The notes under the pieces are model-generated. The model was not told the DNA's origin. It saw only the letters and a list, made by a program, of their open reading frames with translations, and did not search any database. From the IMG/VR virus record IMGVR_UViG_3300045988_155985: a stretch of 48,901 nucleotides of DNA. One strand, written 5' to 3'. This stretch comes from a virus. Taxonomy: Duplodnaviria > Heunggongvirae > Uroviricota > Caudoviricetes. The first letter of the stretch is position 1. Each line of letters begins with the position of its first letter. A program made the translations under genes and the position numbers. This document shows, piece after piece, positions 12,878 to 47,889 of this stretch.

Positions 12878-13221
12878 TGAACTCCTTCAAAGAGGTTATA
12901 GCGCAAGATATTTCTGCAATATTCCTCAATGAAAAAGAGTTTGCCGATACATATAACATAGACGGCAAGGATATCCTTGCCGTTATTGATACAGACCTTA
13001 TTCATGAGCGGAATAAACGCTCATATGCTGAGTTTGCAGAGGGAATAAATCAGGGGCAAATAATATTATTTGTTTCAAGAAAAGATTTTCCTGTTCTCCC
13101 TGTCAAAGACCAGTCAATGAAAATCAACGGTAAAAATTATATTGTTGATGAAGTATCAGATAATGTTGGTGTATTGGAAATAACTCTCACTGTTAATACT
13201 AACAGAGGAATGCCGATTTGA
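12877..13221 (+). CDS. putative head-tail connector/adaptor protein
   Basis: Size and position between head and tail genes. Confidence 0.4.
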   Translation: MNSFKEVIAQDISAIFLNEKEFADTYNIDGKDILAVIDTDLIHERNKRSYAEFAEGINQGQIILFVSRKDFPVLPVKDQSMKINGKNYIVDEVSDNVGVLEITLTVNTNRGMPI

Positions 13222-19444: not shown

Positions 19445-20435
19445 AACGCTTTTTGATGTTATATATCAGAATGTAAATATTACCGCTCATATGTCACCTG
19501 ATGTTTTGTCAATGTCTTATACAGATAATGAAGATGGTCAGGTCGATGATATTTCTATTATATTAAAAAATGATGATGGGAAATGGTCTGGAGACTGGAC
19601 ACCTAAAAAGGGTGATTTTATTGATTTGAGCTTTAAGCCTATAAATCAAATCGTCCTTGAGTGCGGGAAATTCCAGGTAGATGGCATAACTTGCTCTGGA
19701 CCACCTTCTGTTGTTGAGGTAACTGCTGTTTCTGTTCCTGTTTCATCAGGCATTAGACGTGATTTAAAAAGTAATGCATGGGAAAAAACAACTCTTAAAG
19801 ATATAGCAACTTCTATAGCTAAATTAGCTAACCTTGAACTGTTGTTTCTTATTGATGGTGATAGTAATCCATATTATGCGCGTGAAGATCAAATGGAGGA
19901 AAGCGATTTAAAATTTCTCCATCGACTTTGCCAGGATGAAGGGTTGTCGTTAAAGGTCACTGATAGCCAATTAATAATATTTGCTCAAGAGATGTTTGAG
20001 CAAAAAGATCCTATTGCTACGCTTACGTTAGGTATTGATGAGATAATCAGATATAGCTTTAGCACACAATCTACAGATTTGTATAAAAGTTGCACGTGCA
20101 AATATCGCGTACCTAAAAAAAGAAAGTCGCTTTCGTATACTTGGGTAGATCCATCCGTAGAAGAAGGGTCGAATCTTAAGATAAGAAAACTGGTAGCTAA
20201 TTTAGATGAAGCAAAACGTAAGGCAAAGGCTGCTTTGCGGCTTAAAAATAGATATCAAAATACAGGATCTTTAGTATTGGTTGGAGACACCAGATTGGTT
20301 GCTGGTGTAACTATAAATCTGGACGGATTCGGTTCATTTTCTGGAAAATATCTTATATCGAAAGCTGTGCATTCAATTGGGGCTAGTGGTTATACCACCT
20401 CGATTGATGTCCGAAGAGTAATTAATGGGTATTAA
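19434..20435 (+). CDS. tail protein, P2 gpD-like
   Basis: 333 aa; synteny X-D-V-W-J-I-H-G. Confidence 0.65.
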   Translation: MLRKTLFDVIYQNVNITAHMSPDVLSMSYTDNEDGQVDDISIILKNDDGKWSGDWTPKKGDFIDLSFKPINQIVLECGKFQVDGITCSGPPSVVEVTAVSVPVSSGIRRDLKSNAWEKTTLKDIATSIAKLANLELLFLIDGDSNPYYAREDQMEESDLKFLHRLCQDEGLSLKVTDSQLIIFAQEMFEQKDPIATLTLGIDEIIRYSFSTQSTDLYKSCTCKYRVPKKRKSLSYTWVDPSVEEGSNLKIRKLVANLDEAKRKAKAALRLKNRYQNTGSLVLVGDTRLVAGVTINLDGFGSFSGKYLISKAVHSIGASGYTTSIDVRRVINGY

Positions 20436-21839: not shown

Positions 21840-22960
21840 CGTTGCCGCGCGGTGGTTTGCCAGATATTACTTTCGCAGATTCTAACCCGACTGATATAAC
21901 AACTCGTTCAATCAGGGCTTTTGAGAGTATAACAGGTGAAACATTAGCACCTGCTGATCCACGTAGATTATTCATCTTATCATTGTGTGAGATTATTATA
22001 CAGCAAAGAAAAGCTATCGATTTTTCTGCAAAACAAAACCTTCTTACATATGGTGAAGGTGAATATCTCGACCATATAGGCTATCTGACGGATACGCCTA
22101 GGCTGGAAGCTCAATCTGCCTTGACTACATTTGAGTTTAATCTGTCAACAAAATTATCGGGGATATATACAATACCTGCTGGCACTCAAATTTCAACTGG
22201 AAATAGTGTTATTTTCCAAACAGATGTTTTGTTGGAAATACCAGCTGGGAAAACAGTTGGTACAGTCTCAGGATATGCTGTTATACCTGGTTTATCGGGG
22301 AATGGCTTTTTACCAGGGCAAATAAATGAGTTGGTGACTCCATTGCCGTATGTTTCCAGCGTAAGGAATCTAACAACATCTAATTCTGGTGCTGATACAG
22401 AGTCAGATGATAATTATGCTGAAAGAATAAAACTTTCGCCGGAAAAACTATCTACAGCAGGGCCGGAGGATTCTTATAAATATTGGACAAGAACAGCCAA
22501 TCAGAATATAAAAGATGTGAATGTATATACACCATCGCCCGGAACTGTAGAAATCCGTTCTTTGTTAGAGAACGGAGATATACCTTCTGATGAATTATTA
22601 GAGCAGATAAATAGCGTTCTCTCTGCAACTAATATTCGACCATTCACAGATAAAGTTCTTGTTAAGAAACCAGAGAGCATTGAATACGATATAATAATTA
22701 AATACTGGATTAACTCATCGGACAAAAACAGAACAACTTTAATTCAAAGTGAGGTTGAGAAAGCTATTGATGAGTATAAACAATGGCAACGTTCGGTTAT
22801 GGGAAGAGATATAAATCCAGATGAAATTATTCAACGTTTAAAAAATGCTGGGGCTAAAAGATTAGAAATATCAAGTCCTGTATTTACTGTGGTTGGAGAG
22901 ACGCAGGTCGCCAGAGAGAGAAATATAAATTGCCAGTATGCGGGGTTAGAAGATGGCTGA
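21836..22960 (+). CDS. baseplate protein J-like
   Basis: 374 aa; synteny. Confidence 0.75.
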   Translation: MTLPRGGLPDITFADSNPTDITTRSIRAFESITGETLAPADPRRLFILSLCEIIIQQRKAIDFSAKQNLLTYGEGEYLDHIGYLTDTPRLEAQSALTTFEFNLSTKLSGIYTIPAGTQISTGNSVIFQTDVLLEIPAGKTVGTVSGYAVIPGLSGNGFLPGQINELVTPLPYVSSVRNLTTSNSGADTESDDNYAERIKLSPEKLSTAGPEDSYKYWTRTANQNIKDVNVYTPSPGTVEIRSLLENGDIPSDELLEQINSVLSATNIRPFTDKVLVKKPESIEYDIIIKYWINSSDKNRTTLIQSEVEKAIDEYKQWQRSVMGRDINPDEIIQRLKNAGAKRLEISSPVFTVVGETQVARERNINCQYAGLEDG

Positions 22961-23534
22961 TATCTTTAATGTTAGCTTGTTGGATGTTTTACCTCCTAAC
23001 TTAGCTAGAGATCCCAACGTGATAGCTATGTCGAAAGCTATCGATGATGAACTACAAGCAATTAACAATTTAATATATAAGACAGAAATATATAGCGTTG
23101 TTGATAACCTGGATTCAGTTGTTCTCGATCATTTAGCTTGGCAATGGAATGCTGATACATGGAGGGATAGTTGGCCTGTATCGTTAAAGCGTTCTGTTTT
23201 TAAATCAATAATACGAACAAAGCGAATAAAGGGTACAAGGGCAGCGGTTGAAGATGTAGTAAATAGCTTGGGTGGAGAGGTAAACATAACAGAATGGTTT
23301 GAAACATCACCACCTGGCGAACCATATACAGCCTCAATTGTTGCTTCGATTAACTCTTTTGATGGTGCCGTTCCTTCGAAAGAGATGTTGGAAGATACGT
23401 TAAGAAGTATCAAGAGCGCAAAGTCGGCAAGAACATTATTTACATTTTCGCAAGCAGCCAATGTTTCTGGTGGTGTCGGTATTGTTGGTGCTTGTCAGCC
23501 TGTGTCTTATGTACGATTAATTGGCGAGTGCTAA
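22953..23534 (+). CDS. tail protein I-like
   Basis: 193 aa between J and tail fibre. Confidence 0.6.
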   Translation: MADIFNVSLLDVLPPNLARDPNVIAMSKAIDDELQAINNLIYKTEIYSVVDNLDSVVLDHLAWQWNADTWRDSWPVSLKRSVFKSIIRTKRIKGTRAAVEDVVNSLGGEVNITEWFETSPPGEPYTASIVASINSFDGAVPSKEMLEDTLRSIKSAKSARTLFTFSQAANVSGGVGIVGACQPVSYVRLIGEC

Positions 23535-23564
23535 TTCGCAATTTGTTAATTCAAGGAATTAAAC

Positions 23565-25799
23565 GTGAGTAAATTATTATTTACGATGACTGACGCCGGG
23601 CGTCAGGAGCTGGTTAATGCCAACAAAACAGGAACAAATAAAGTTGAGATTGTTTCTGTTGGTTTAGGTAGTAGATATTATGTCACGTCAACTTCACAAA
23701 CAAATATAACAAACGAAATAAAACGACTTACCACAATAGGTGGCAAAGTTGTTTCCCCTGATACAATTCATGTAACAGCGAAGGATGATAGTAAAGATGA
23801 GTATGTTGTCCATACAATAGGATTGTATACGAATAAGGGTACGTTGTTTGCTGTATACTCACAAGAACAAGCAATAATAAATAAAGCATCATCTACTATC
23901 GCTTTAATATCAAGTGATATAGCAATTAAAACTCTTGATACTAAAAATATTACATTTGGTGATATTGAGTTTATTAATCCTCCCGCGACCGAAACTGTTG
24001 TTGGGGTGGCAAGATTTGCTAATGAACAAGAAATTGATGCAGGTACAGATGATTCCCTTGCTGTTTCAGCAAAGCGGCTTAAGCAAGCCATTGTGAAACA
24101 TGAGCAATCACGTAATCATCCTGATGCAACTTTAACCTCAAAAGGCTTTGTTCAACTTAGCAGCGCCACCAATAGCACGTCTGAAACGCTTGCTGCGACG
24201 CCTAAGGCTGTTAAGGCAGCATATGACCTTGCTAACGCTAAATACACCGCACAGGACGCTACCACAGCGCGAAAAGGGATTGTTCAGCTCAGTAGTGCCA
24301 CCAACAGCACGTCTGAAACGCTAGCAGCAACACCAAAGGCTGTTAAGGCAGCGTATGATCTTGCGGTCGGAAAGGCTCCGTCCAATCACACGCATTCGTG
24401 GGAGCAGATAACAAATGTGCCTGTAGCTTCACTGACTGTAAGGGGAATAACTCAGCTCAGTAGTGCCACTAACAGCACGTCTGAAACGCTGGCTGCGACA
24501 CCAAAAGCTGTTAAGGCGGTAATGGATGAAACGAACAAGAAAGCGCCCTTAAACAGTCCTGCGCTGACCGGAACACCAACAACACCAACTGCGCCAAAAG
24601 GTACTAACAATACTCAGATCGCAAGCACGGCTTATGTTATGGCTGCGATCGCTGCCCTCGTGGACTCGTCGCCTGACGCACTGAATACGCTGAACGAGCT
24701 GGCTGCGGCGTTGGGCAACGACCCGAATTTTGCGACCACCATGACTAACGCGCTTGCGGGTAAGCAACCGAAAGATGCCACCCTGACGGCGCTGGCCGGG
24801 CTTGCTACTGCGGCAGACAGGTTTCCGTATTTTACGGGGAATGATGTTGCCAGTCTGGCAACCCTGACAAAAGTTGGGCGGGATATTCTTGCGAAATCGA
24901 CCGTTGCCGCCGTTATCGAATACCTCGGTTTGCAGGAAACGGTAAACAGGGCTGGTAACGCCGTGCAAAAAAATGGCGATACCTTGTCCGGTGGGCTTAC
25001 TTTTGAAAATGACTCAATCCTTGCTTGGATTCGAAATACTGACTGGGCGAAGATTGGATTTAAAAATGATGCCGATGGTGACACTGATTCATACATGTGG
25101 TTTGAAACAGGCGACAACGGCAATGAATATTTCAAATGGAGAAGCAAACAAAGCACCACAACAAAAGACCTGATGACGCTGAAATGGGATGCACTAAATA
25201 TTCTTGTTAATGCCGTCATTAATGGCAGCCTTGGAGTTGGTACGACGAATGCGTTAGGTGGTAGCTCTATTGTTCTTGGTGATAATGATACCGGATTTAA
25301 ACAGAATGGAGACGGTATTCTTGATGTTTACGCTAATAGTCAGCGAGTATTCCGCTTTCAGAATGGAGTTGCTATTGCTTTTAAAAACATTCAGGCAGGT
25401 GATAGTAAAAAATTCTCGCTATCCAGCTCCAACACCTCCACAAAGAATGTAACGTTTAATTTATGGGGTGCTTCAACCCGTCCAGTAGTTGCAGAGTTAG
25501 GCGATGAGGCAGGATGGCATTTCTATAGCCAGCGAAATACAGATAACTCGGTAATATTTTCTGTTAACGGTCAGATACAGCCCAGCAACTGGGGGAATTT
25601 TGATTCACGCTATGTAAAAGATGTTCGCCTGGGTACGCGAGTTGTTCAATTGATGGCGCGTGGTGGTCGTTATGAAAAAGCCGGACACGCAATTACCGGA
25701 TTAAGAATCATTGGTGAAGTAGATGGCGATGATGAAGCCATCTTCAGACCAATACAAAAATACATCAATGGCACATGGTATAACGTCGCACAGGTGTAA
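23565..25799 (+). CDS. tail fibre protein: constant N-terminal part plus variable C-terminal part in the currently expressed orientation
   Basis: 744 aa; GTG start after AAGGAA; internal fibre repeats; crossover site at 24923-24946 lies inside the gene. Confidence 0.8.
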   Translation: MSKLLFTMTDAGRQELVNANKTGTNKVEIVSVGLGSRYYVTSTSQTNITNEIKRLTTIGGKVVSPDTIHVTAKDDSKDEYVVHTIGLYTNKGTLFAVYSQEQAIINKASSTIALISSDIAIKTLDTKNITFGDIEFINPPATETVVGVARFANEQEIDAGTDDSLAVSAKRLKQAIVKHEQSRNHPDATLTSKGFVQLSSATNSTSETLAATPKAVKAAYDLANAKYTAQDATTARKGIVQLSSATNSTSETLAATPKAVKAAYDLAVGKAPSNHTHSWEQITNVPVASLTVRGITQLSSATNSTSETLAATPKAVKAVMDETNKKAPLNSPALTGTPTTPTAPKGTNNTQIASTAYVMAAIAALVDSSPDALNTLNELAAALGNDPNFATTMTNALAGKQPKDATLTALAGLATAADRFPYFTGNDVASLATLTKVGRDILAKSTVAAVIEYLGLQETVNRAGNAVQKNGDTLSGGLTFENDSILAWIRNTDWAKIGFKNDADGDTDSYMWFETGDNGNEYFKWRSKQSTTTKDLMTLKWDALNILVNAVINGSLGVGTTNALGGSSIVLGDNDTGFKQNGDGILDVYANSQRVFRFQNGVAIAFKNIQAGDSKKFSLSSSNTSTKNVTFNLWGASTRPVVAELGDEAGWHFYSQRNTDNSVIFSVNGQIQPSNWGNFDSRYVKDVRLGTRVVQLMARGGRYEKAGHAITGLRIIGEVDGDDEAIFRPIQKYINGTWYNVAQV
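24145..24530 (+). repeat. three imperfect direct repeats of about 78 bp inside the tail fibre gene
   Basis: Repeated peptide QLSSATNSTSETLAATPKAVKA; copies at about 24151, 24283 and 24451. Confidence 0.6.
24923..24946. repeat. left inverted repeat / recombination site of the invertible segment
   Basis: CCTCGGTTTGCAGGAAACGGTAAA; exact reverse complement at 27888-27911; core resembles gix/cix sites as recalled. Confidence 0.7.
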
Positions 25800-26893: not shown

Positions 26894-27904
26894 TTAAACG
26901 CTCGCTACATTATACCAGGTGCCATTTATATACTTTTGAACGGGTCTGTAATAAACGCCCGCTATATTATCGGCAGAATTGGACCCTGTATCCTGAACAT
27001 TAATACCAGTCAATACATGACCTGACGGGCACTGGAAATTCCATGTTTGCCAGTTGTTCACGCCATAATATTGCTGTGAACCAAGTCGAACATCTTTCAC
27101 ATAACGGGAATCAAAGTTACCGTAATCTGAGGGATTAACACGCCCTGTAATATTTATGGTTTTATTACTTTGAATACTGCCGGAGACAAAGCGCATAACA
27201 TGGACGTTATTAGCATAAACATCCAGATACCCGTCGCCATTTTGTTTAAATCCCGTGTCATTATCACCCAAAACAATCGAGTTACCGCCAAGAGCACTGG
27301 ATGTACCGATGCCCAGTGCACCATTCAATTGACCTCCAGATAATGACAACGCCCCAACATCAGCAGCAGTCGGTTTAATGTGCGAACTGTAAATTACATA
27401 TACAGTTCCATCTGTCAGACCTGTTGGTTTATTCGCTGTATAAGTTGGTGATGTATGAATCGTTACGCTGGCGTTACTGGTATAATCCCACTGAATATTA
27501 ACACCTGTGGCGTAATTACCTATTTCAACATAAACATCATAGGTATCACCTGATGTATTCACCCATGCAAAATTAGTAAATCCAACCGATGTCCGTCGCC
27601 ATAACGCACCAGTAAGACCTTTTGGATTTCCATTTCCCGCACGAAGAACAAGTTCAGATATACCAGCCTGCATAGGGGAGTTAACATTATATCCAGCACC
27701 ACCAATCAGGCTTATGTAAACCACGGAACTGGCTTGTGGCATTGTTACAGTTGCCAGTTTGAACCATCCAGCACCACCACTAAAAGACATGGTTGTTGAA
27801 TTTGTTGTGCCGATATTACGCAGGAATAGTTTTTTATCGGGAATATCTGCGCCGTTCTGGTTTTTCTGTAATGCGCCAGAAGCCTGATTTACCGTTTCCT
27901 GCAA
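26894..27904 (-). CDS. alternative tail fibre C-terminal variable region (promoterless until inversion)
   Basis: Track start is TTG; encodes LQETVNQ which continues the fibre frame across the crossover site; shares [17 protein letters not shown] and C-terminal [11 protein letters not shown] with the plus-strand fibre. Confidence 0.7.
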
Positions 27905-27911
27905 ACCGAGG
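27888..27911. repeat. right inverted repeat / recombination site of the invertible segment
   Basis: TTTACCGTTTCCTGCAAACCGAGG, reverse complement of 24923-24946. Confidence 0.7.
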
Positions 27912-27985
27912 TTTTTGCGAATTGCCTCTGTGTCGTCTGAACGATATTTTTTCCCGCTTTTAGCAACAATCGCGGTTTAGAAAGT

Positions 27986-28540
27986 ATGCAATATGGTTAT
28001 GCGAGGGTGTCAACTTTTGACCAGAATTTGGAATTACAACTGGAGGCGCTCAGGAGTTTAGGATGTGACCGGATTTTTGAAGATAAAATATCCGGTGCTA
28101 AATCAAAACGACCAGGACTTGATAAGCTACTTAAGGTGTTACGGCCGGGCGATACGGTTATTGTCTGGAAGCTGGACCGAATGGGGCGTTCTCTGATTCA
28201 TCTTGTTGATTTACTTAACCATTTTTTATCAAACAACATTGAGTTTATTTCGATTACGGAAGGGATAAAAATTAGCACTTCAATTGGCCGCTTTGCCTAC
28301 ACGATGCTGAGTGCAGTCGCAGAGATGGAGCGGGAAAATATGATTGAAAGAACGCGTGCAGGATTGGCGGTGGCAAGGGCTAACGGCAGGATAGGAGGAC
28401 GCCGCTCAAAGCTGGCACCAGAGCAATGGGAACAGATCGGAAGGCTTATTGCGAATGGTGTTTCACGTAAGCGGATAGCGATTATCTTCGATGTTACCTT
28501 ATCCACGCTTTACCGCAGGTTTCCGGCTGGGAATCATTGA
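27986..28540 (+). CDS. serine-recombinase DNA invertase (Hin/Gin/Cin family)
   Basis: N-terminal GYARVSTFDQ with catalytic Ser, central resolvase motifs, C-terminal HTH; adjacent to the invertible segment. Confidence 0.9.
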   Translation: MQYGYARVSTFDQNLELQLEALRSLGCDRIFEDKISGAKSKRPGLDKLLKVLRPGDTVIVWKLDRMGRSLIHLVDLLNHFLSNNIEFISITEGIKISTSIGRFAYTMLSAVAEMERENMIERTRAGLAVARANGRIGGRRSKLAPEQWEQIGRLIANGVSRKRIAIIFDVTLSTLYRRFPAGNH

Positions 28541-28670
28541 CTGGAGTTAGGCCAGTAGTATGATGCTCGCAAAACGAGATCCAATTTAGATCCTTTTACT
28601 GGTGGATTATCGTTCGATCAGTGAGAGACTTCGTGCATGACCGAAAGTGTTGTGGTAGAGTTCTCTTAAA

Positions 28671-28685
28671 ACCACGTAACGTGGT
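28671..28685. promoter_or_regulatory. 15-bp palindrome ACCACGTAACGTGGT upstream of repA; same half-sites as the cI/cro operators
   Basis: Perfect ACCAC-N5-GTGGT palindrome. Confidence 0.4.
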
Positions 28686-28729
28686 TATGATTGTGGGTGT
28701 CTGGTTGGAAAGTGACCAGATATGGAAAC

Positions 28730-28850
28730 AAAAAGCCCGCAGATAAATCTGCGGGCTTCTTGCGACATCCACGGAAAACCAACAATTAACCATGGGCGCC
28801 TCGACAACTCCCATTATACGTTGGTTTTCCGTGGACGCAAGAGCGAACAT
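28730..28850 (-). ncRNA. candidate CopA-like antisense RNA against the repA leader
   Basis: Minus-strand terminator (hairpin 28735-28756 followed by T-run on the minus strand) and a 15-bp-stem hairpin at 28769-28834 just upstream of the repA ATG. Confidence 0.3.
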
Positions 28851-29699
28851 ATGGATAGACCAATGCCGTCTCTACGTTCAGCTTACGTTTGTAATTTGTC
28901 GCCGGAGTTCCAGCCTCCAAAGCACCATACGCACAAGCTGCCGCTGGTGTTATCTGATGCTTTACAGCGCATTAATGGGCGTGATCTTACGTGTGAGGTT
29001 GCGTTCTACGTTAATCAACCGTCAGAGCGGAAGCGCCGGATAAACGAGCATCGTCGTCGGGCGATTAATGCTGTGATCGCTGCGATTTTGCACCATGTAA
29101 ACATCATTTCTAAGCGGGTTCTGGCTAGTGCTGAGGCGTTGGCTGATTTTTGCGGCCTGTCTACCGTATCCGAAGCTGGGAACAAGTCTATAACGCGCTG
29201 TACAAGGGCGTTGTCGCAACTGAAAGCGTTAGGTTTTATTGATTATGAACGTCGCTGGGATCGGGTGAATAAACAGTATTGGCCAGCGAAAATAGAGATT
29301 CGTGATCAACTGCTGGAAACCGTTGGTATTACTGAACAAGCATGGAGACGTGCGGTTAGCCAGAAACTTAATTACTTCAATGCGAAGAATAGCGAACGGC
29401 TTAAAAAAGCGATAACGGAGGCTGATTATAAGCGTATTGTTATTCAGGAGCAGATGGAGAATGTATGGCGTCAGAGGAAGACGGCCAGAGAGATAAAGGC
29501 AAAACAGAAAGCAGCGGAGAGAGCTGCGCGTCTTGTTCGGGAAAAGGGAGAGGCCGAACTTCGTCATCAAATCACTAGAGAGGTTAGCCAGGAATTTGCT
29601 GATGGCATGTATCCTGGAGCTGACCTTGCATATTTACGATCCCTCGTTGAGCAGCGTTATAACAGGTTAAGAAAGACCTGGAAATCACTCCAACATTAA
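28851..29699 (+). CDS. repA: plasmid replication initiator RepA, IncFII RepA1-like
   Basis: Segment GNKSITRCTRALSQLKALGFIDY matches recalled RepA1 GKLSITRATRALTFLSELGLITY; basic C-terminal half; ATG 28851 preferred over track start 28722 because the leader is structured. Confidence 0.7.
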   Translation: MDRPMPSLRSAYVCNLSPEFQPPKHHTHKLPLVLSDALQRINGRDLTCEVAFYVNQPSERKRRINEHRRRAINAVIAAILHHVNIISKRVLASAEALADFCGLSTVSEAGNKSITRCTRALSQLKALGFIDYERRWDRVNKQYWPAKIEIRDQLLETVGITEQAWRRAVSQKLNYFNAKNSERLKKAITEADYKRIVIQEQMENVWRQRKTAREIKAKQKAAERAARLVREKGEAELRHQITREVSQEFADGMYPGADLAYLRSLVEQRYNRLRKTWKSLQH

Positions 29700-30330
29700 C
29701 CCACCTGAATGATGAATCCGGTTTTACCGGAGGATTATCTACGTCGCAATAAAATATCTGTTCAAAAAACAATCTAAATTAATTTTCTCTAAACCTGAAC
29801 ACAGCGTAAATATCGCCTTTACAGGCATCAGCTAATCAAGTTATCCACAGTTTTGATATGTATATGCAAATGGTTTTTTATAATAGATGCACTAAACAAA
29901 TAAATGCAAAATCACTTTCTTTTATTAAAACTTTCTTTATTTAACTTACGCAGGCTTTGCCTGTGAATATGTTCGCCCTTGCAGCGAGCTAAAGCTCGCG
30001 CCGGTTCGAATCGCTACGCTCAAATATACCTCCTCCGGCACTTGCCGGAGGCATGGAGCAGCCTGATCATCCTTTTCGAAACGGCACGTTTCGAACTATA
30101 CAAAATCAATTTATATAAGGCCGAAACAAGGCCTACGGCCGGGCTTTGCAGGAGGAAGGGGCGAGCCTTATCAATAAACGTCGATAAATACGCACACAGT
30201 AGCCATCAGAACGCGATAAAACGTAAGAAACATCATTTCCTATTAGACATAGAAAACTTGTCTTATACGCAATGTAGTAAATTTCTATTGCCACATAGGA
30301 AAAGATTTCCTACCATCGTAGATATAATAA
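29700..30330. promoter_or_regulatory. candidate vegetative origin region downstream of repA
   Basis: Perfect DnaA box TTATCCACA at 29841-29849; AT-rich stretch; perfect palindromes at 29985-29998, 30032-30051 and 30075-30095. Confidence 0.4.
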
Positions 30331-33919: not shown

Positions 33920-35065
33920 TTATGGTCTGCTTTTCTGTGCCAGCTTATCAGCACATGTTTTTATCAGATCCTGTAGTGTCCTGGCTGGCAGGTTTGCATC
34001 CAGAACGCTGAGTATGCTGTTGTGATCAGCCTGGTCGACTACTTTGCCTGTCGGTGGTAGTAGCTTGAGCTGAGGATTCAGGTTTTCGTCAAAGCTGATA
34101 AGTGCTCTGGCGTTTCTGAGCAGATCAAGAAGTAAGGCTGATATCACATTTTCCTGAGTCATTGCTGGCAGATTTAGCGCCGCTTTAGTTTTCCCTGTTG
34201 CCTTGTCAAACTCCTTGATTAGTTCCTTCCTGTAGTTCGGTTCCGTTAATAGCCGATTATGCTCTGTTGCCGCGCGGATAATCGTTTTTTCCTGGTATAG
34301 TCGTTTAGCCAGATCACGCTCGTACTGTGTTTTTAACACGCTGCTGATAGCGTTAAAGGCTTCAATGTAGGCCAGCTTGATATCTTTCACGCCTGGACCG
34401 TCGATGCTCTCCATGAGCAAGGTAAATCCGTCTTTTGTCATGCGATAGATTGTTATTTCGCGGTCGCTTCCTTCCAGCGGTCGTTGTTCTTTAAAAAAGT
34501 GACGCGCCGCAGCTGTGCGAGGAATGCGTAACGCATCGATGGCCATAACGATGGAATTGTTTGTGGTGCTGAATGCCTGGGCAACATCGGCTGAGGTTGT
34601 GAGTGGCTCGTTATTGCACACCTTAATGTAAAACATCGGTTTGGCGTTGAGCGTATCGACAACCTCACGAGCATTGTTTGGCGAGACGGTTACGGTCGCG
34701 GCCGTTTGCGCGTTCTGGTTGAAATAGCAGTCTTCCAGTTTTTCGAACACATCCCAAGCCTGATCGGTTTCAAGCATTTTGGCGTGACGTGCAGCCCCGC
34801 GTTCTGTCCAGAGGATGAGGGAGCGGACTTTAGGTGAAACTGGATTTTGTGAGTAGTTTAAAGCTACCCGCAATTCTTTAAGGTCATTACCAACAACTTT
34901 GAAAAAGTGTTTCCCTTCAACGAAACGTACTTTGTTCTCATGATGATTCTGGCGAATACGCACCGGCTCAGTGCCGTAAAGCTGTGCCAGTAACTCGGTA
35001 GTAATGACAGGGATTTGGTTATGCAGGATAGGCTGTAGGGTGTTAACGGTCGGAAGCGTTTTCAT
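33920..35065 (-). CDS. antirepressor (Ant-like) with ORF6N/Rha-like domains
   Basis: 381 aa; N-terminal VITTELLAQLYG and central ADVAQAFS segments resemble antirepressor/Rha-family domains. Confidence 0.7.
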   Translation of the reverse strand: MKTLPTVNTLQPILHNQIPVITTELLAQLYGTEPVRIRQNHHENKVRFVEGKHFFKVVGNDLKELRVALNYSQNPVSPKVRSLILWTERGAARHAKMLETDQAWDVFEKLEDCYFNQNAQTAATVTVSPNNAREVVDTLNAKPMFYIKVCNNEPLTTSADVAQAFSTTNNSIVMAIDALRIPRTAAARHFFKEQRPLEGSDREITIYRMTKDGFTLLMESIDGPGVKDIKLAYIEAFNAISSVLKTQYERDLAKRLYQEKTIIRAATEHNRLLTEPNYRKELIKEFDKATGKTKAALNLPAMTQENVISALLLDLLRNARALISFDENLNPQLKLLPPTGKVVDQADHNSILSVLDANLPARTLQDLIKTCADKLAQKSRP

Positions 35066-35253
35066 TTTGTACCTCCCATAACTACTTTGGTTACGAGGGC
35101 GATTTTTGCGTCAGAAACAGCGTTATCGTTGCTGGCGATGCGCATAGCTTCTCGCTCAATGATTTCAGCCAGGCGGAATTTATCGGCGTATGAGGCTTTC
35201 TTGAGAAGGATCTTTACGAGGTTGACGTAATAGTCATGGGGTAGGTTTGTCAT
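35062..35253 (-). CDS. small protein translationally coupled to ant (icd-like position)
   Basis: 63 aa; stop TGA overlaps ant ATG (ATGA). Confidence 0.45.
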   Translation of the reverse strand: MTNLPHDYYVNLVKILLKKASYADKFRLAEIIEREAMRIASNDNAVSDAKIALVTKVVMGGTK

Positions 35254-35418
35254 TGTGATGATTCCCTTAAAGGTTAAGGATACTCACCACCGTCAGGTTC
35301 CAATCATTGGGTGGTGAGACGTGCAGGGTTGGAACTACCGGACACAATGACGAACCGGCGAGTCTTACGACTCCCCCGCACGCCCCACCATAATTTGGGT
35401 GTAGCAGTGCTTTACGCA

Positions 35419-35440
35419 TAAAAAAACCGCTAACGCGGTA
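35419..35440 (-). terminator. minus-strand rho-independent terminator
   Basis: On the minus strand: hairpin ACCGCGTTAGCGGT followed by TTTTTTT. Confidence 0.5.
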
Positions 35441-35585
35441 TGCGCCATTGTGTCTACGGGGTTCCAATCCCGACCGTAGATTTTGCTACGGCTCGGAAAG
35501 TGTCCACCAATGGCGCATTCATGTCAATACGGCGGGATTTTAACAGAGACAACCACATAGCGTGGGTTTATTGGTAGGCAGAAAC

Positions 35586-35760: not shown

Positions 35761-35999
35761 AATGAAGTTTTTTAACTTCTTCGGATGTAATTACATGTAA
35801 TAAAAGCATTTGTTATTCCTTCATTATGAAGGCGAGGACGTGTAATATGGCTTGGGGCCTTTTCGCCGATTCGCACCCGGGCACCGACTTTAAGGAAAGG
35901 ATCATCCACTTGCCGTACACGCAAGCACAAGCGGTGTGCTTGCTCTCGCGTCATTTTCGTCGGTGGAGATGCCGTGAAACGGCCTGTAAGGGCCACACA

Positions 36000-36122
36000 A
36001 TGAAAAAATACTACATGTGTATTTTTATCGTTGTTACTGGAGCTTTGTTTACGCCACATGGGGAGGGTTGGAAGATTACTGATAACGCTCTGAATGTGAC
36101 GATAAACATTAGCAGCAAGTAG
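36000..36122 (+). CDS. small hydrophobic peptide, 40 aa
   Basis: MKKYYMCIFIVVTGALF N-terminus; ATG 36000; strong terminator immediately downstream. Confidence 0.3.
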   Translation: MKKYYMCIFIVVTGALFTPHGEGWKITDNALNVTINISSK

Positions 36123-36128
36123 CGATTA

Positions 36129-36150
36129 GGCCCCTTCGGGGGCCTTTTTT
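36129..36150 (+). terminator. rho-independent terminator
   Basis: Hairpin GGCCCC-TTCG-GGGGCC followed by TTTTTT. Confidence 0.6.
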
Positions 36151-36372: not shown

Positions 36373-36627
36373 TTACTTCTGGTTGTATTGAGCCTTGAGT
36401 AACTCAAAAGACTTTGTCAGCACTTCTTTCAATGACATATCCATTGAGCTGGCGAACGTTTTGTACTCGCGTTTAAATTCAGGGTCGACGTTAAACGCCA
36501 TTTGTGCCCCACCTGATTTGGTTCTGGCTGGCGTTTCAGTCGGGTCGAAAACCTGCGGTTGTTCGATCGATGGCGGTACGCCTTTGCTGTTCTTCTTTGG
36601 TGGTTTTGATGGTGCGGCCATGTGCAT
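36373..36627 (-). CDS. small partition/centromere-binding protein, ParG-like (ribbon-helix-helix)
   Basis: 84 aa downstream of parA; basic flexible N-terminus and C-terminal RHH-like segment. Confidence 0.55.
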   Translation of the reverse strand: MHMAAPSKPPKKNSKGVPPSIEQPQVFDPTETPARTKSGGAQMAFNVDPEFKREYKTFASSMDMSLKEVLTKSFELLKAQYNQK

Positions 36628-36664
36628 CCCCTCTTATATAAATCTATAAAACTATAATTATATA

Positions 36665-37318
36665 TTACGCGGCAGTAGTCAGAGCCTCAAGCTGGTTGAT
36701 AATCCCCTGAATAACGTCGTCTGCCTTTTTGCGTGGCGCAACGTATGAGCACTCAATGAGGCTTAAGCCCTTATCCTGAGCTTTGCTCAGAGCTGGCTTG
36801 TGGGGAATGTACTTATCGACAACAAAGTATGGCGTATTAGCCAGGTACTCTTGGGCTTCAATATAGTCAGCTTCGTTTTCAGCCGCGCCGGAAAACACCA
36901 TGCAAATTTTCTTGATTGGTACACCCTTTTTAACGATGCCGTGAGCTGTGTTAACGGTGGTTTCCAGGTCATCGGTAGAGAATCTGGTTGGTAAAATAAC
37001 CATATCCAGAAATTCAGAGAGCTTCGGTACTGATTCAGATGCGTAGGCACCGCCATCGACGATAACCAGGTCGTATACTTCTGATTCGATGATTTTCTGG
37101 ACTTGTGATGGTGTGCCGCACGGCTGCGCCGCGATTGCTGGTTCGATATTGTTGGCCATTCTGCGTTGTACCCAACGCGTTACCGTTCCGTTAAGCACAT
37201 CCATATCGATCAGGCATACATTCCAGCCGGCCTTTGCATAAGCAACTGCTAAAGCACGGGCAATTGTTGATTTGGTTACGCCGCCTTTTCCGTTGAAAAT
37301 ACCTACAGAGATAGTCAT
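36665..37318 (-). CDS. parA: partition ATPase, small ParA (ParF-like, type Ib)
   Basis: Deviant Walker A GKGGVTKST; about 217 aa; ATG 37318 (track start 37333). Confidence 0.85.
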   Translation of the reverse strand: MTISVGIFNGKGGVTKSTIARALAVAYAKAGWNVCLIDMDVLNGTVTRWVQRRMANNIEPAIAAQPCGTPSQVQKIIESEVYDLVIVDGGAYASESVPKLSEFLDMVILPTRFSTDDLETTVNTAHGIVKKGVPIKKICMVFSGAAENEADYIEAQEYLANTPYFVVDKYIPHKPALSKAQDKGLSLIECSYVAPRKKADDVIQGIINQLEALTTAA

Positions 37319-37341
37319 TTGTCGAGACTCCATGTGTTTGG

Positions 37342-37446
37342 TTATATAATTCTATAAATCTATATTTATAGAACGAGGTAAGCATAACCAACTTTTTGGC
37401 GGATGAAAAGCGTTTTATATAATTATATAAAACTATAATCATATAA
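37342..37446. repeat. AT-rich TATAATTATA-type repeat cluster upstream of parA; candidate centromere/operator
   Basis: Two blocks (37342-37373, 37412-37446); a related block at 36632-36667 between parA and parG. Confidence 0.4.
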
Positions 37447-37464
37447 GCGGGCGTTAGCCCGCTT
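37446..37464 (-). terminator. hairpin downstream of the minus-strand gene 37469-37843
   Basis: GCGGGC-GTTA-GCCCGC followed on the minus strand by AT-rich sequence. Confidence 0.35.
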
Positions 37465-37468
37465 GCAG

Positions 37469-37843
37469 TCAGAGGTCAGCTATCGTTGATATCAGTTGAT
37501 TTGCTAGCTGTCGCTGTTTACGTGAGAGGGTTAGAGCTGCTTCTGAGCGGTCGCTAAGAGGGGTATTCTCATCGAGAATCATGAGGCATACAGAAATGAT
37601 AGCTCTGTTATATGCCATCAATGACTGGCACAGCTTTGATACAGAAGGCACATCGTATTGTAAGGCTGTTTTGAGGCAGGCTTTTTGCTCGTAAGCAAGA
37701 TGAAGGGTAGATGATATCCAGTCGATATCTTTCTCATTATCAATGATTTGGCATAACATACACTCAATCGCTATGTTCAACGCTTGGATTTCGATTCCAG
37801 CAGTGATCAGAGTTTCGTTTTTATTGGCTGTATGTAATTCCAT
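37469..37843 (-). CDS. hypothetical protein, 124 aa, downstream of the repressor gene
   Basis: ORF track; ATG 37843; operator palindrome 37879-37893 just upstream. Confidence 0.45.
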   Translation of the reverse strand: MELHTANKNETLITAGIEIQALNIAIECMLCQIIDNEKDIDWISSTLHLAYEQKACLKTALQYDVPSVSKLCQSLMAYNRAIISVCLMILDENTPLSDRSEAALTLSRKQRQLANQLISTIADL

Positions 37844-37878
37844 GCGTAGCCTCTTTTATACTTTCACATGTTGTCAAA

Positions 37879-37893
37879 ACCACAAAATGTGGT
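37879..37893. promoter_or_regulatory. operator palindrome ACCACAAAATGTGGT
   Basis: Perfect ACCAC-N5-GTGGT between the cI-like stop and the next minus-strand gene. Confidence 0.45.
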
Positions 37894-37935
37894 TTTTTTG
37901 AGCGTAGAAATGCACGGCTTTCGCCGTGCTGTGTA

Positions 37936-38592
37936 TCATAACCAGTTGACAACACTAACTACGCGGCCCAGAACTTTATAACGCTTAAATTCCTCGTTAT
38001 TCAGATGCTTAGTGTTCATTTCAGCATCCCTTTCGGTTGACAGCATAACAGCATTGTCACCCGGTATGACTCTACAGTGCCTCAAAACAACCAGGCCATT
38101 TCTGTCTTCAAGGGCATAGATCCCCTCATGAATCTCTGTATCGTCTGTATTAATCAGGACTTGGGAGCCAGGGGATATTGTTGGTGACATTAACTCATCG
38201 TTGCTCTGGAGAACTGACAGAGACGATGAGTTGATGTTCTTGCTTCGTAGAATCTCCTGTTCTATCGCCAGCACTGGCTTTTCTCCGGCGTGCGATGCTA
38301 TGTCATTTTTTATAGCTACAAGCCCAGGAATAACAGGAGCGTTAGTATTCTGGGGTGGGAACGGGTTATCTGTTAAGCACGCGATATAAGGCGCTGATGC
38401 TTTCAGGGCGTGCGCGATTTTCTTGATGGCAGGTATAGATGGTTGTCTTAATCCGGCCTCATAGTTCTGCAAGGTGCTTAAGCCTATTCCAGTGACTTGC
38501 TGGAGATCTCCGGCAGTCATGCCGGATTGTTTCCGTAGAGTCTGAATGCGCAGACCTATTTCTTTCTTGATGTTCTCGTCGTTGCTTTTCAT
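37936..38592 (-). CDS. prophage repressor, cI/LexA-like (N-terminal HTH, C-terminal S24 peptidase-like)
   Basis: HTH GMTAGDLQQVTGIGLSTLQNYE; C-terminal segment with Ser and Lys candidates; divergent from cro-like gene. Confidence 0.8.
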   Translation of the reverse strand: MKSNDENIKKEIGLRIQTLRKQSGMTAGDLQQVTGIGLSTLQNYEAGLRQPSIPAIKKIAHALKASAPYIACLTDNPFPPQNTNAPVIPGLVAIKNDIASHAGEKPVLAIEQEILRSKNINSSSLSVLQSNDELMSPTISPGSQVLINTDDTEIHEGIYALEDRNGLVVLRHCRVIPGDNAVMLSTERDAEMNTKHLNNEEFKRYKVLGRVVSVVNWL

Positions 38593-38629
38593 GTCTCATC
38601 AATCGTGAATGGTGGGTTATTTATACATT

Positions 38630-38747
38630 ACCACATTTAGTGGTTTTCACATGGTAAGACGAGAGGTGGACCACAAATAGAAGGTTATTTTTTGTTTCGC
38701 CCATTGAAAAACTCACGATATGTGGTTTTAATACCACATATCGTGGT
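38630..38747. promoter_or_regulatory. operator cluster in the cI-cro intergenic region
   Basis: ACCACATTTAGTGGT at 38630-38644, imperfect CTCACGATATGTGGT at 38712-38726, ACCACATATCGTGGT at 38733-38747, half-site at 38670. Confidence 0.5.
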
Positions 38748-38765
38748 TTAACTGGAGTTCGTTAA

Positions 38766-39260
38766 ATGACCTTTCAGGAGTGGGTTGACGAGAATGGAGG
38801 CCAAATTGGTGTTGCCAGAAAGTTTGGCTTTACGTCATCACTGATTGGTGCCTGGTATCGCTTCGAGAGATTCCCTCGTGCGGATAACCTGACGCTGCTG
38901 GTGGCGTGTTCGGAAGGCCGGATTAACGTCCAGCAATGGGCGGCAGATTTTGCCGAACGTCAGCGCCAGCGTAGCGATGGCACATCGGTTCGGCAGAACA
39001 AGATCAAAGGGAATCTCCCTGTTAACTGCTTATCAAGGCTGAAAGCGGTTTTCTCTGAGCTGGGGATGCCTGCGGAGCGTTGCAATCTACGCGGTCCGCG
39101 ATTCATTGCTCGCTGGAAACACTCACACGTAACCGTTTCAGAGGTTCGTGATGCGATTGCCGTGCTGGAGCTTAAGAATAAAGATTCCAGCGATATCGAG
39201 CTGATTCATAAGGAGATTAGCAACGCCCGGCGTTCAGCACTTGGGAGGCTTGAGGAATGA
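38766..39260 (+). CDS. Cro-like early regulator with C-terminal extension
   Basis: Divergent from repressor across the operator cluster; N-terminal HTH-like segment. Confidence 0.5.
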   Translation: MTFQEWVDENGGQIGVARKFGFTSSLIGAWYRFERFPRADNLTLLVACSEGRINVQQWAADFAERQRQRSDGTSVRQNKIKGNLPVNCLSRLKAVFSELGMPAERCNLRGPRFIARWKHSHVTVSEVRDAIAVLELKNKDSSDIELIHKEISNARRSALGRLEE

Positions 39261-47813: not shown

Positions 47814-47889
47814 GGCCCCTTAGCTCAGTGGTTAGAGCAGGCGACTCATAATCGCACGGTCATCGGTTCAAATCCGGTAGGGGCCACCA
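47814..47889 (+). tRNA. tRNA with CAU anticodon (Met or lysidine-dependent Ile2; resembles ileX-type)
   Basis: Perfect 7-bp acceptor stem GGCCCCT/AGGGGCC; D-arm GCTC/GAGC; anticodon loop CTCATAA; T-arm with TTCAAAT; encoded 3' CCA. Confidence 0.85.

Follow-up and report, generated by a model that had tools for sequence, protein, structure and literature searches.

A candidate prophage-repressor operator at the head of the repA leader in IncFII-type phage-plasmids

Introduction

When a prophage persists as a plasmid, does the repressor that maintains lysogeny also act on the replication gene? This question is raised by a locus in the 48,901-nucleotide stretch of tailed-phage DNA analysed here as a whole (hereafter the window), in which a perfect palindrome lies upstream of the replication gene repA and its arms recur around the gene of a cI-type repressor. 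A sequence-only reading of the window had proposed that the lysogeny repressor binds both places, linking plasmid copy control to the lysis–lysogeny state. Our literature search found no description of the regulation or the operators of these phage-plasmids, and two leads were set aside as unrelated, namely pSLy3, a member of the SSU5 supergroup, and HQ103, a 32-kb P2-like phage. Here, we examine the operator family, the replicon in which one of its members lies, and the conservation of both across five replicon lineages.

Results

The window is a circular phage-plasmid

The 4 kb surrounding the repA-proximal site shows 98–99% identity to circular E. coli plasmids of ~48 kb, such as NZ_CP009073.1 of strain ATCC 25922, and is just as similar to the deposited genomes of the Yersinia phages vB_YpM_39/41/44. 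The annotation of these relatives comprises a complete contractile-tail virion, with head, tail and lysis gene sets, and also a Hin-type invertase, a Mu-like invertible tail-fibre segment, RepA, a ParA operon, toxin–antitoxin pairs and a cI-type repressor. The repA leader region is present in 71 of the 5,426 complete E. coli genomes, and all 77 matching places lie on plasmids, with none on a chromosome. Because the matches are confined to plasmids and the relatives carry phage genes, the window is a circular myovirus-type phage-plasmid, the family of which is thus carried by ~1.3% of complete E. coli genomes; one of the carriers is ATCC 25922, a strain used for quality control. The same family is also present in Salmonella, and a more distant relative with blaTEM-1 occurs in Serratia. 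In the latter, plasmid p2 of Serratia marcescens (L013; CP083756.1), the resistance gene is inserted between the invertase and the replicon module (22462–24804); this resistance-bearing phage-plasmid shares the rep–par–cI layout with the window, while its head and tail genes are different. Within the window, an inversion boundary with a match to Mu was placed at 27840–27915, and a tRNA gene lies near the right end (47814–47886, plus strand).

A putative operator family occupies regulatory spots of the element

The palindrome ACCACGTAACGTGGT stands at 28671–28685, precisely where the sequence-only reading had put it, with a counterpart at 13018–13032 in the 98% identical element of ATCC 25922 (NZ_CP009073.1). 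The pattern ACCAC-N5-GTGGT has four exact matches in the 48.9-kb window (starting at 28671, 37879, 38630 and 38733), compared with a chance expectation of 0.02 per window on average; none of 100 dinucleotide-preserving shuffles of the window, which served as the null model, contained more than one match. Extended by one base on either side, the repA-proximal site becomes a perfect 17-bp palindrome, centre included (AACCACGTAACGTGGTT, 28670–28686), which heads the repA leader and is referred to below as O_rep. When the 12 bases of AACCAC-N5-GTGGTT are scored, only two sites in the window, at 28670 and 37878, show no mismatch, and O_rep (0 of 12) therefore fits the consensus better than any of the sites between cI and the cro-like gene. 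The latter form the O_R cluster (38629–38748), with copies at 38629 (one mismatch), ~38668 (three, counted by eye), 38711 (two) and 38732 (one), and all four overlap the promoters from which cI and the rightward operon are divergently transcribed. The two palindromes that had been reported there, at 38630 and 38733, are indeed exact matches; the imperfect copies, of which one had been noted, number two.

The other perfect site, O_par (37878–37894), had been described as lying just after cI. It is present there, and its place can be given more precisely as between the cI terminator hairpin and the gene of a 124-aa protein, ~34–35 bp upstream of the ATG of that gene, on the minus strand, at the head of the parA operon. 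O_par is kept in the Salmonella relative, and GTGGTT half-sites take its place in the Serratia-type relatives. No convincing promoter could be placed at O_par; transcripts from cI may continue into the partition operon, or the action of cI at this site may be atypical. A candidate fifth operator with one mismatch, AACCACATAGCGTGGGT (35551–35567), lies upstream of the isrK, C4 RNA and antirepressor operon, just past a terminator and ~25 nt upstream of a TTGACA −35 element, and is conserved in the ATCC 25922 plasmid (L001:19476). The Rfam match to isrK begins at the start predicted for this TTGACA promoter; since the centre of the candidate operator then falls at about −67, which is unusual for simple repression, a repressing role is uncertain. 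Judged by eye, simple promoter occlusion does not suit the surroundings of the par and ant copies, and the operator family may therefore not act in a uniform manner.

Taken together, the sites of the family are confined to regulatory spots of the element. Within it, the isolated sites, O_rep and O_par, are the best matches, as would be expected if single sites had to bind the repressor without cooperative help. That O_rep is a single site, with no cooperative pair of the kind found at N15 OL, nevertheless counts against its role in repA control. Other identities of O_rep were considered. A hix/gix recombination site was rejected on its half-site spacing, which differs from that of hix (by eye), and a DnaA box was rejected as the palindrome is absent from the TTATNCACA matches. 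RepA itself is unlikely to be the protein binding O_rep, because the same arms flank cI.

Elsewhere in the window, within the tail genes, the sequence ACCACCTTCTGTTGT occupies 19700–19714, and in several IMG/VR relatives (L002–L004) it is an exact ACCAC-N5-GTGGT palindrome, ACCACCTTCTGTGGT. Recurrent as it is, this palindrome is probably a coincidence of coding sequence.

O_rep heads the leader of an IncFII-type replicon

The product of repA (28851–29699, plus strand) is an IncFII-type replication initiator, matching PF02387 (IncFII_repA) with E = 1.3e-43 and 149.8 bits against a cut-off of 22.9, and matching no other family; in addition, PLSDB typing assigns the Serratia relative to IncFII. 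Two start codons come into question. The longest ORF matches Pfam only from residue 52 onward, which places the true start at 28851 or 28863 rather than at 28722, and ATG 28863 is the one that aligns with the start annotated by RefSeq in the Salmonella relative. The RefSeq models of repA in the E. coli relatives, that of ATCC 25922 among them, begin at the position corresponding to 28722 and cross both the antisense terminator and the leader hairpin described below; this long model probably reflects an over-extended annotation. The distance of ~165 bp between palindrome and repA given by the sequence-only reading accordingly holds for ATG 28851 (166 bp) and would grow to 178 bp if translation starts at ATG 28863.

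The palindrome is not adjacent to the repA ATG, as a predicted antisense-RNA control region lies between the two, and O_rep stands at the start of a repA leader of ~185–195 nt. The counter-transcript would be driven by a predicted promoter, TTGCGT-16-TATAAT (28813–28840, minus strand), which is conserved in four lineages, and would give an RNA of ~85 nt (28722–28806, minus strand) built of inverted repeats, with a stem–loop and an intrinsic terminator hairpin (28729–28762) followed by a U-run. Its predicted fold has an energy of −41.1 kcal/mol (z = −6.3), and it is complementary to the repA leader, including a 15-mer, CGCCTCGACAACTCC (28797–28811), that is invariant in all lineages. A search for the Rfam CopA family or any other replicon antisense family gave no match to the counter-transcript even at E up to 1, and the Rfam matches seen below threshold were hairpin-plus-terminator look-alikes. 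No tap-like leader peptide was evident by eye in the repA leader.

Further upstream, no copB-like ORF was found between hin (stop codon at 28540) and repA; on the palindrome's upstream side of this interval, the plus strand contains no ATG-initiated ORF of at least 20 aa, only overlapping GTG/TTG ORFs of 32–41 aa. Downstream, ~140 bp past the repA stop codon, lies an oriR-like region (29841–29945, plus strand) that opens with a DnaA box, TTATCCACA, at 29841 and continues into an AT-rich stretch. This is the sole perfect DnaA box of the window, a count of one being within chance expectation; going by the layout of IncFII replicons, this region is a putative origin. Overall, the replicon appears to have an R1-type layout without the CopB repressor.

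Two GATC sites 11 bp apart (GATCCAATTTAGATCC, 28578–28592) are situated just downstream of the predicted promoter P1 (see below). The GATC…GATC pair is kept in all five replicon lineages, with different bases in between, and may provide a Dam/SeqA input into repA transcription.

The right arm of O_rep is invariant in five replicon lineages

Related replicons were gathered through RepA, from plasmid and phage databases, and by means of a 20-base leader pattern in metagenomes, which yielded 15 true replicons; a contig scan with the 15-mer CGCCTCGACAACTCC returned only chance matches from unrelated phyla. The replicons fall into five lineages. The E. coli type, with many near-identical copies, carries ACCAC-GTAAC-GTGGT at the O_rep position. 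The Salmonella type, with cI 65% and RepA ~85% identical and ~76% DNA identity in the repA region, carries ACCACGTTGTGTGGT, and a third type, known from IMG/VR and metagenomes (RepA 81% identical), carries ACCACGATGTGTGGT. The two remaining lineages are of the Serratia type, with RepA only 28–32% identical to that of the window (and cI 35% identical in Serratia p2), and have ACCCCGAAATGTGGTT or a variant of it. Written as arm, spacer and arm, the sites read ACCAC-GTAAC-GTGGT, ACCAC-GTTGT-GTGGT, ACCAC-GATGT-GTGGT and ACCCC-GAAAT-GTGGT, the spacer thus varying between GTAAC, GTTGT, GATGT and GAAAT, and in the fifth lineage the left arm is shifted by 2 bp.

In the five-lineage alignment, the interval from P1 to the antisense terminator contains just two stretches of 4 nt or more without any variation, TAGAGT (28656–28661) and GTGGTT (28681–28686), the latter being the right arm of O_rep. 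Counted by column, invariance amounts to 6/6 in the right arm, 3/6 in the left arm, 0/5 in the spacer and 8/9 in TGnTAGAGT, against 18/85, 1/8 and 10/42 in the flanks, or ~20–25% of the flanking columns overall. In the Serratia-type replicons, the left arm is degenerate (A to C) or out of register by 2 bp (L213), leaving a half-site at best. Since the left arm changes with no compensating change in the right arm, this pattern argues against an RNA hairpin and for the recognition of half-sites by a protein.

The 46.8 kb of Serratia p2 contain just three copies of the 8-mer ATGTGGTT, and these lie upstream of repA, upstream of par and in the cI–cro region. The same plasmid has two more GTGGTT half-sites, 21 bp apart (L013, 42021–42060), upstream of an HTH gene (L013, 41549–41896, minus strand) and of holin genes, which hints at an extra repressor target in the Serratia lineage.

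Among the relatives, cI, RepA and the 124-aa gene travel together. We found none with an altered repressor specificity in which co-variation of the repA site could be followed: all of them keep the recognition helix of cI along with the GTGGTT half-site, so that the comparison shows conservation but not co-variation.

Two predicted promoters precede the repA leader

The only promoter called by a generic scan in this region, P1 (TTGACT-16-TATGAT, 28537–28564, plus strand; 10/12 matches), shares bases with the stop codon of hin, and it persists in the Salmonella and Serratia lineages despite a different upstream gene. Its predicted start is at ~28571. By analogy with plasmid R1, P1 is probably a constitutive upstream promoter of repA, the counterpart of PcopB. 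A second candidate, P2, consists of an extended −10 element, TGgTAGAGT (28653–28661, plus strand), conserved between lineages: a lenient scan found TGnTAGAGT in all four lineages scanned, and its TAGAGT hexamer is the invariant run noted above. In four of the five lineages, 9 nt separate the end of TGnTAGAGT from ACCAC, irrespective of sequence differences within this interval. P2 also has its weaknesses, namely no recognizable −35 element (2–3 of 6 bases), a −10 hexamer with 4/6 matches, and its absence from the calls of the generic scan. Transcription from P2 is predicted to start at ~28668, ~7 nt past the −10 element, which would put O_rep at about +3 to +19, a placement resembling that of lac O1. 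A promoter reading out of the palindrome on the minus strand (CACAAT at 28695) was discarded, as it is not conserved.

The repressor, its neighbours and an antirepressor module

In the cI-type repressor (37936–38592, minus strand; 218 aa), an HTH_3 domain at the N-terminus is followed by a CI-like domain at the C-terminus. A PDB sequence search with cI returned significant matches to generic HTH domains only and none to the C-terminal domain. The recognition helix, STLQNYEAG in the context TGI..STLQNYEAG.R, does not differ between the three aligned cI proteins, which include homologues at 65% and 35% identity, and this invariance explains the unchanging half-site. To the right of O_R, the first gene of the rightward early operon (38766–39260, plus strand) encodes a 164-aa protein with a weakly Cro/repressor-like N-terminus, residues 1–56 of which match phrog_35 ('transcriptional repressor', E = 1.5e-4). 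Other products of the early operon are nucleases of the Ref-like and resolvase-like kinds and a DUF3560 protein that partly matches a 'primase' PHROG; the last is the sole replication-related match in the operon, where no second replication initiator was recognized. Several further HTH proteins are encoded by the element. The partition operon (36373–37843, minus strand) consists of the genes for the 124-aa protein, to which no function is assigned, a ParA ATPase (36665–37333) and an 84-aa protein.

The minus strand at 33920–35492 contains a module resembling P1 immI and Gifsy-1 IsrK–AnrP, made up of isrK RNA (35420–35492; RF01394), a C4 antisense RNA (35307–35395; RF01695), a 63-aa ORF and an antirepressor (33920–35065) with ORF6N/Ant and Rha domains that matches PHROG antirepressor families with E down to 8e-65. 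A ryfA-family sRNA (35853–36150, plus strand; RF00126, 138 bits) adjoins this region. The Ant-type antirepressor is likely to inactivate cI and to be the route of prophage induction. In cI, the match to Peptidase_S24 stays below the Pfam cut-off, and, given this and the antirepressor module, induction may proceed through the antirepressor rather than through RecA-stimulated cleavage of cI. A BLASTP comparison of cI with a LexA sequence was uninformative on S24 autocleavage. As for a LexA box that might provide an SOS link, the sole CTGT-N8-ACAG in the window lies within tail genes and is at chance level.

Discussion

All computational tests that we ran agree with the proposal that O_rep belongs to the immunity-operator family, is functional and is positioned to influence the transcription of repA. 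On the best reading of the sequence, O_rep would be a high-affinity cI operator that acts on an IncFII-type replicon via the transcription of repA. We put the probability that the cI-type repressor binds O_rep and lowers repA transcription at roughly 0.6, and we hold the particular geometry in which it does so by occluding P2 more tentatively, at rather less than even odds. Under this mechanism, repA would be transcribed from two promoters, P1 upstream and P2 just before the palindrome, and a cI dimer bound to O_rep would occupy P2 from about +3 to +19 while also standing in the path of transcripts from P1. The counter-transcript of ~85 nt (running from 28806 to 28722 on the minus strand) would pair with the leader and set the basal level of RepA synthesis. 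In a lysogen, cI would shut P2, so that RepA would be made only from the antisense-limited P1 transcripts and the copy number would be low. P2 would open when cI is missing, as on entry into a naive cell or at very low copy number, or when it is inactivated by the antirepressor, and the resulting burst of RepA would promote replication from the origin downstream of repA, serving establishment or lytic growth. In this scheme, cI would take the role that CopB has at PrepA of plasmid R1, with the same logic as that of CB acting on OL and repA in N15 and phiKO2.

The same conserved elements have to be weighed against other explanations. cI could bind O_rep with no local occlusion at all, either as a roadblock to transcripts from P1, which lies ~100 nt upstream, or by anchoring a loop to O_R or O_par, 9–10 kb away; if looping, its effect on repA could be secondary, or its purpose could be to stabilize repression at O_R. 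This is favoured by P1 being conserved and the only promoter found by the generic scan, with P2 lacking a −35 element, and by single perfect sites far from the main cluster, which recall lambda OL–OR looping. The same question has been posed, and left open, for phiKO2 (PMC4997575). Neither variant, however, explains why the invariant TGnTAGAGT keeps a constant distance of 9 nt to the operator in four of the five lineages. Looping over 10 kb from a single dimer site would be a weak design, and a roadblock would still mean that the repressor controls repA. We consider this alternative unlikely.

Another protein might also be the one that binds ACCAC-N5-GTGGT, be it the Cro-like 164-aa protein alone, another HTH protein or a host factor, in which case the copy at repA would report on that regulator and not on the lysogeny repressor. 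The element does encode several other HTH proteins, and in phiKO2 Cro and CB differ in their site preference (PMC4997575). Yet four copies over the divergent promoters of cI and the rightward operon make a classic operator layout, the half-site and the recognition helix of cI are conserved together across lineages, and the sites keep to the regulatory spots of the element; we judge a binder other than cI to be quite improbable. That the palindrome acts as an RNA hairpin in a P1-derived repA leader, affecting its stability or processing, or is neutral sequence kept by short divergence, seems to us very improbable indeed. A stem of 6–8 bp could form, and the palindrome does lie within the predicted P1 transcript, but the right arm is invariant where the left one is altered with no compensation (A to C in the Serratia type, the 2-bp shift in L213), the same arms are found again in the sites that flank cI, within transcripts unrelated to this one, only 0.02 matches per window would be expected by chance, and the flanks have diverged to ~20–25% invariant columns.

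Repression of repA by cI at O_rep may also be part of something larger. The sites point to a small cI regulon of immunity, replication, partition and perhaps the antirepressor. In the fullest version, cI would be the single master switch of this regulon, governing immunity through O_R, replication through O_rep, partition through O_par and possibly the antirepressor operon; being plasmid-encoded, it would double as a CopB-like sensor of copy number, with feedback between copy number and the stability of lysogeny; and lytic DNA replication would be driven solely by the IncFII-type RepA replicon after its derepression at P2. Taken jointly, these propositions are possible but doubtful.

If cI does control repA at O_rep, copy number, and hence the dosage of cargo genes, would be tied to the lysogeny switch, and a burst of RepA for establishment after infection would be built into the element. 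A plasmid copy-control module of the CopB/PrepA kind would have been rewired to a phage regulator, and a second, independent example would stand beside N15 of the way in which phage-plasmids merge two lifestyles.

The closest functional parallel is offered by the N15 group. In N15 and phiKO2, two OL operators overlap the repA promoter; the repressor CB, which has no clear LexA-type cleavage motifs, binds to them and thereby represses repA and reduces the copy number (PMC4997575). The window resembles N15, phiKO2 and PY54 in the (predicted) presence of a prophage-repressor operator at the repA of a plasmid prophage, and its repressor, like CB, shows no clear LexA-type cleavage motifs, an antirepressor being present here. 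The differences are substantial. The RepA of N15 is a large multidomain initiator of the primase/helicase type, unlike the one described here, which matches only PF02387; N15 is linear with telomeres, whereas the relatives of the window are circular records. The two OL sites of N15 are adjacent to each other and next to cB, whereas here a single site lies 10 kb from cI in the leader of an IncFII-type replicon with predicted antisense control. The operator of N15, T-A-N10-T-A over 16 bp, is likewise unrelated to AACCAC-N5-GTGGTT. Judged from the sequences of RepA, repressor and operator, which are unrelated, the resemblance to N15 is functional and not one of family membership.

The replicon itself recalls plasmid R1, with its constitutive PcopB, its CopB-repressed PrepA and its antisense RNA, CopA (PMC5717011). 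Shared with R1 and other IncFII plasmids are the RepA family (PF02387) and, as predicted here, an upstream constitutive and a downstream repressible repA promoter, a counter-transcript pairing with the leader and an origin downstream of repA. In contrast to R1, the window has no copB, and its predicted repressible promoter carries the operator of the prophage repressor instead. Its counter-transcript, moreover, lacks a match to Rfam CopA, a tap-like leader peptide is not seen by eye, and its RepA shares only family-level (Pfam) similarity with the classical IncFII initiators.

Phage P1 provides another parallel, with one immunity repressor, single operators scattered over a plasmid prophage and one of them at a replication function, and the immI-like module of C4 antisense RNA (RF01695) and antirepressor is found here too. 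In P1, C1 controls the lytic replicon (repL), and the plasmid replicon, repA, is controlled by iterons; in the window, by contrast, the operator lies at the only replicon recognized. The lambda OR and OL regions are similar in having palindromes of 15–17 bp with conserved arms and a free centre, clustered over the divergent promoters of the repressor gene and the early operon. They differ in that the significant matches of the window's cI to solved repressor structures are limited to generic HTH domains, and its extra sites lie at plasmid functions (rep, par) rather than at an early-left operon. The principle of a prophage repressor controlling plasmid replication is thus already known from N15 and phiKO2; the window would extend it to an IncFII-type replicon with predicted antisense control.
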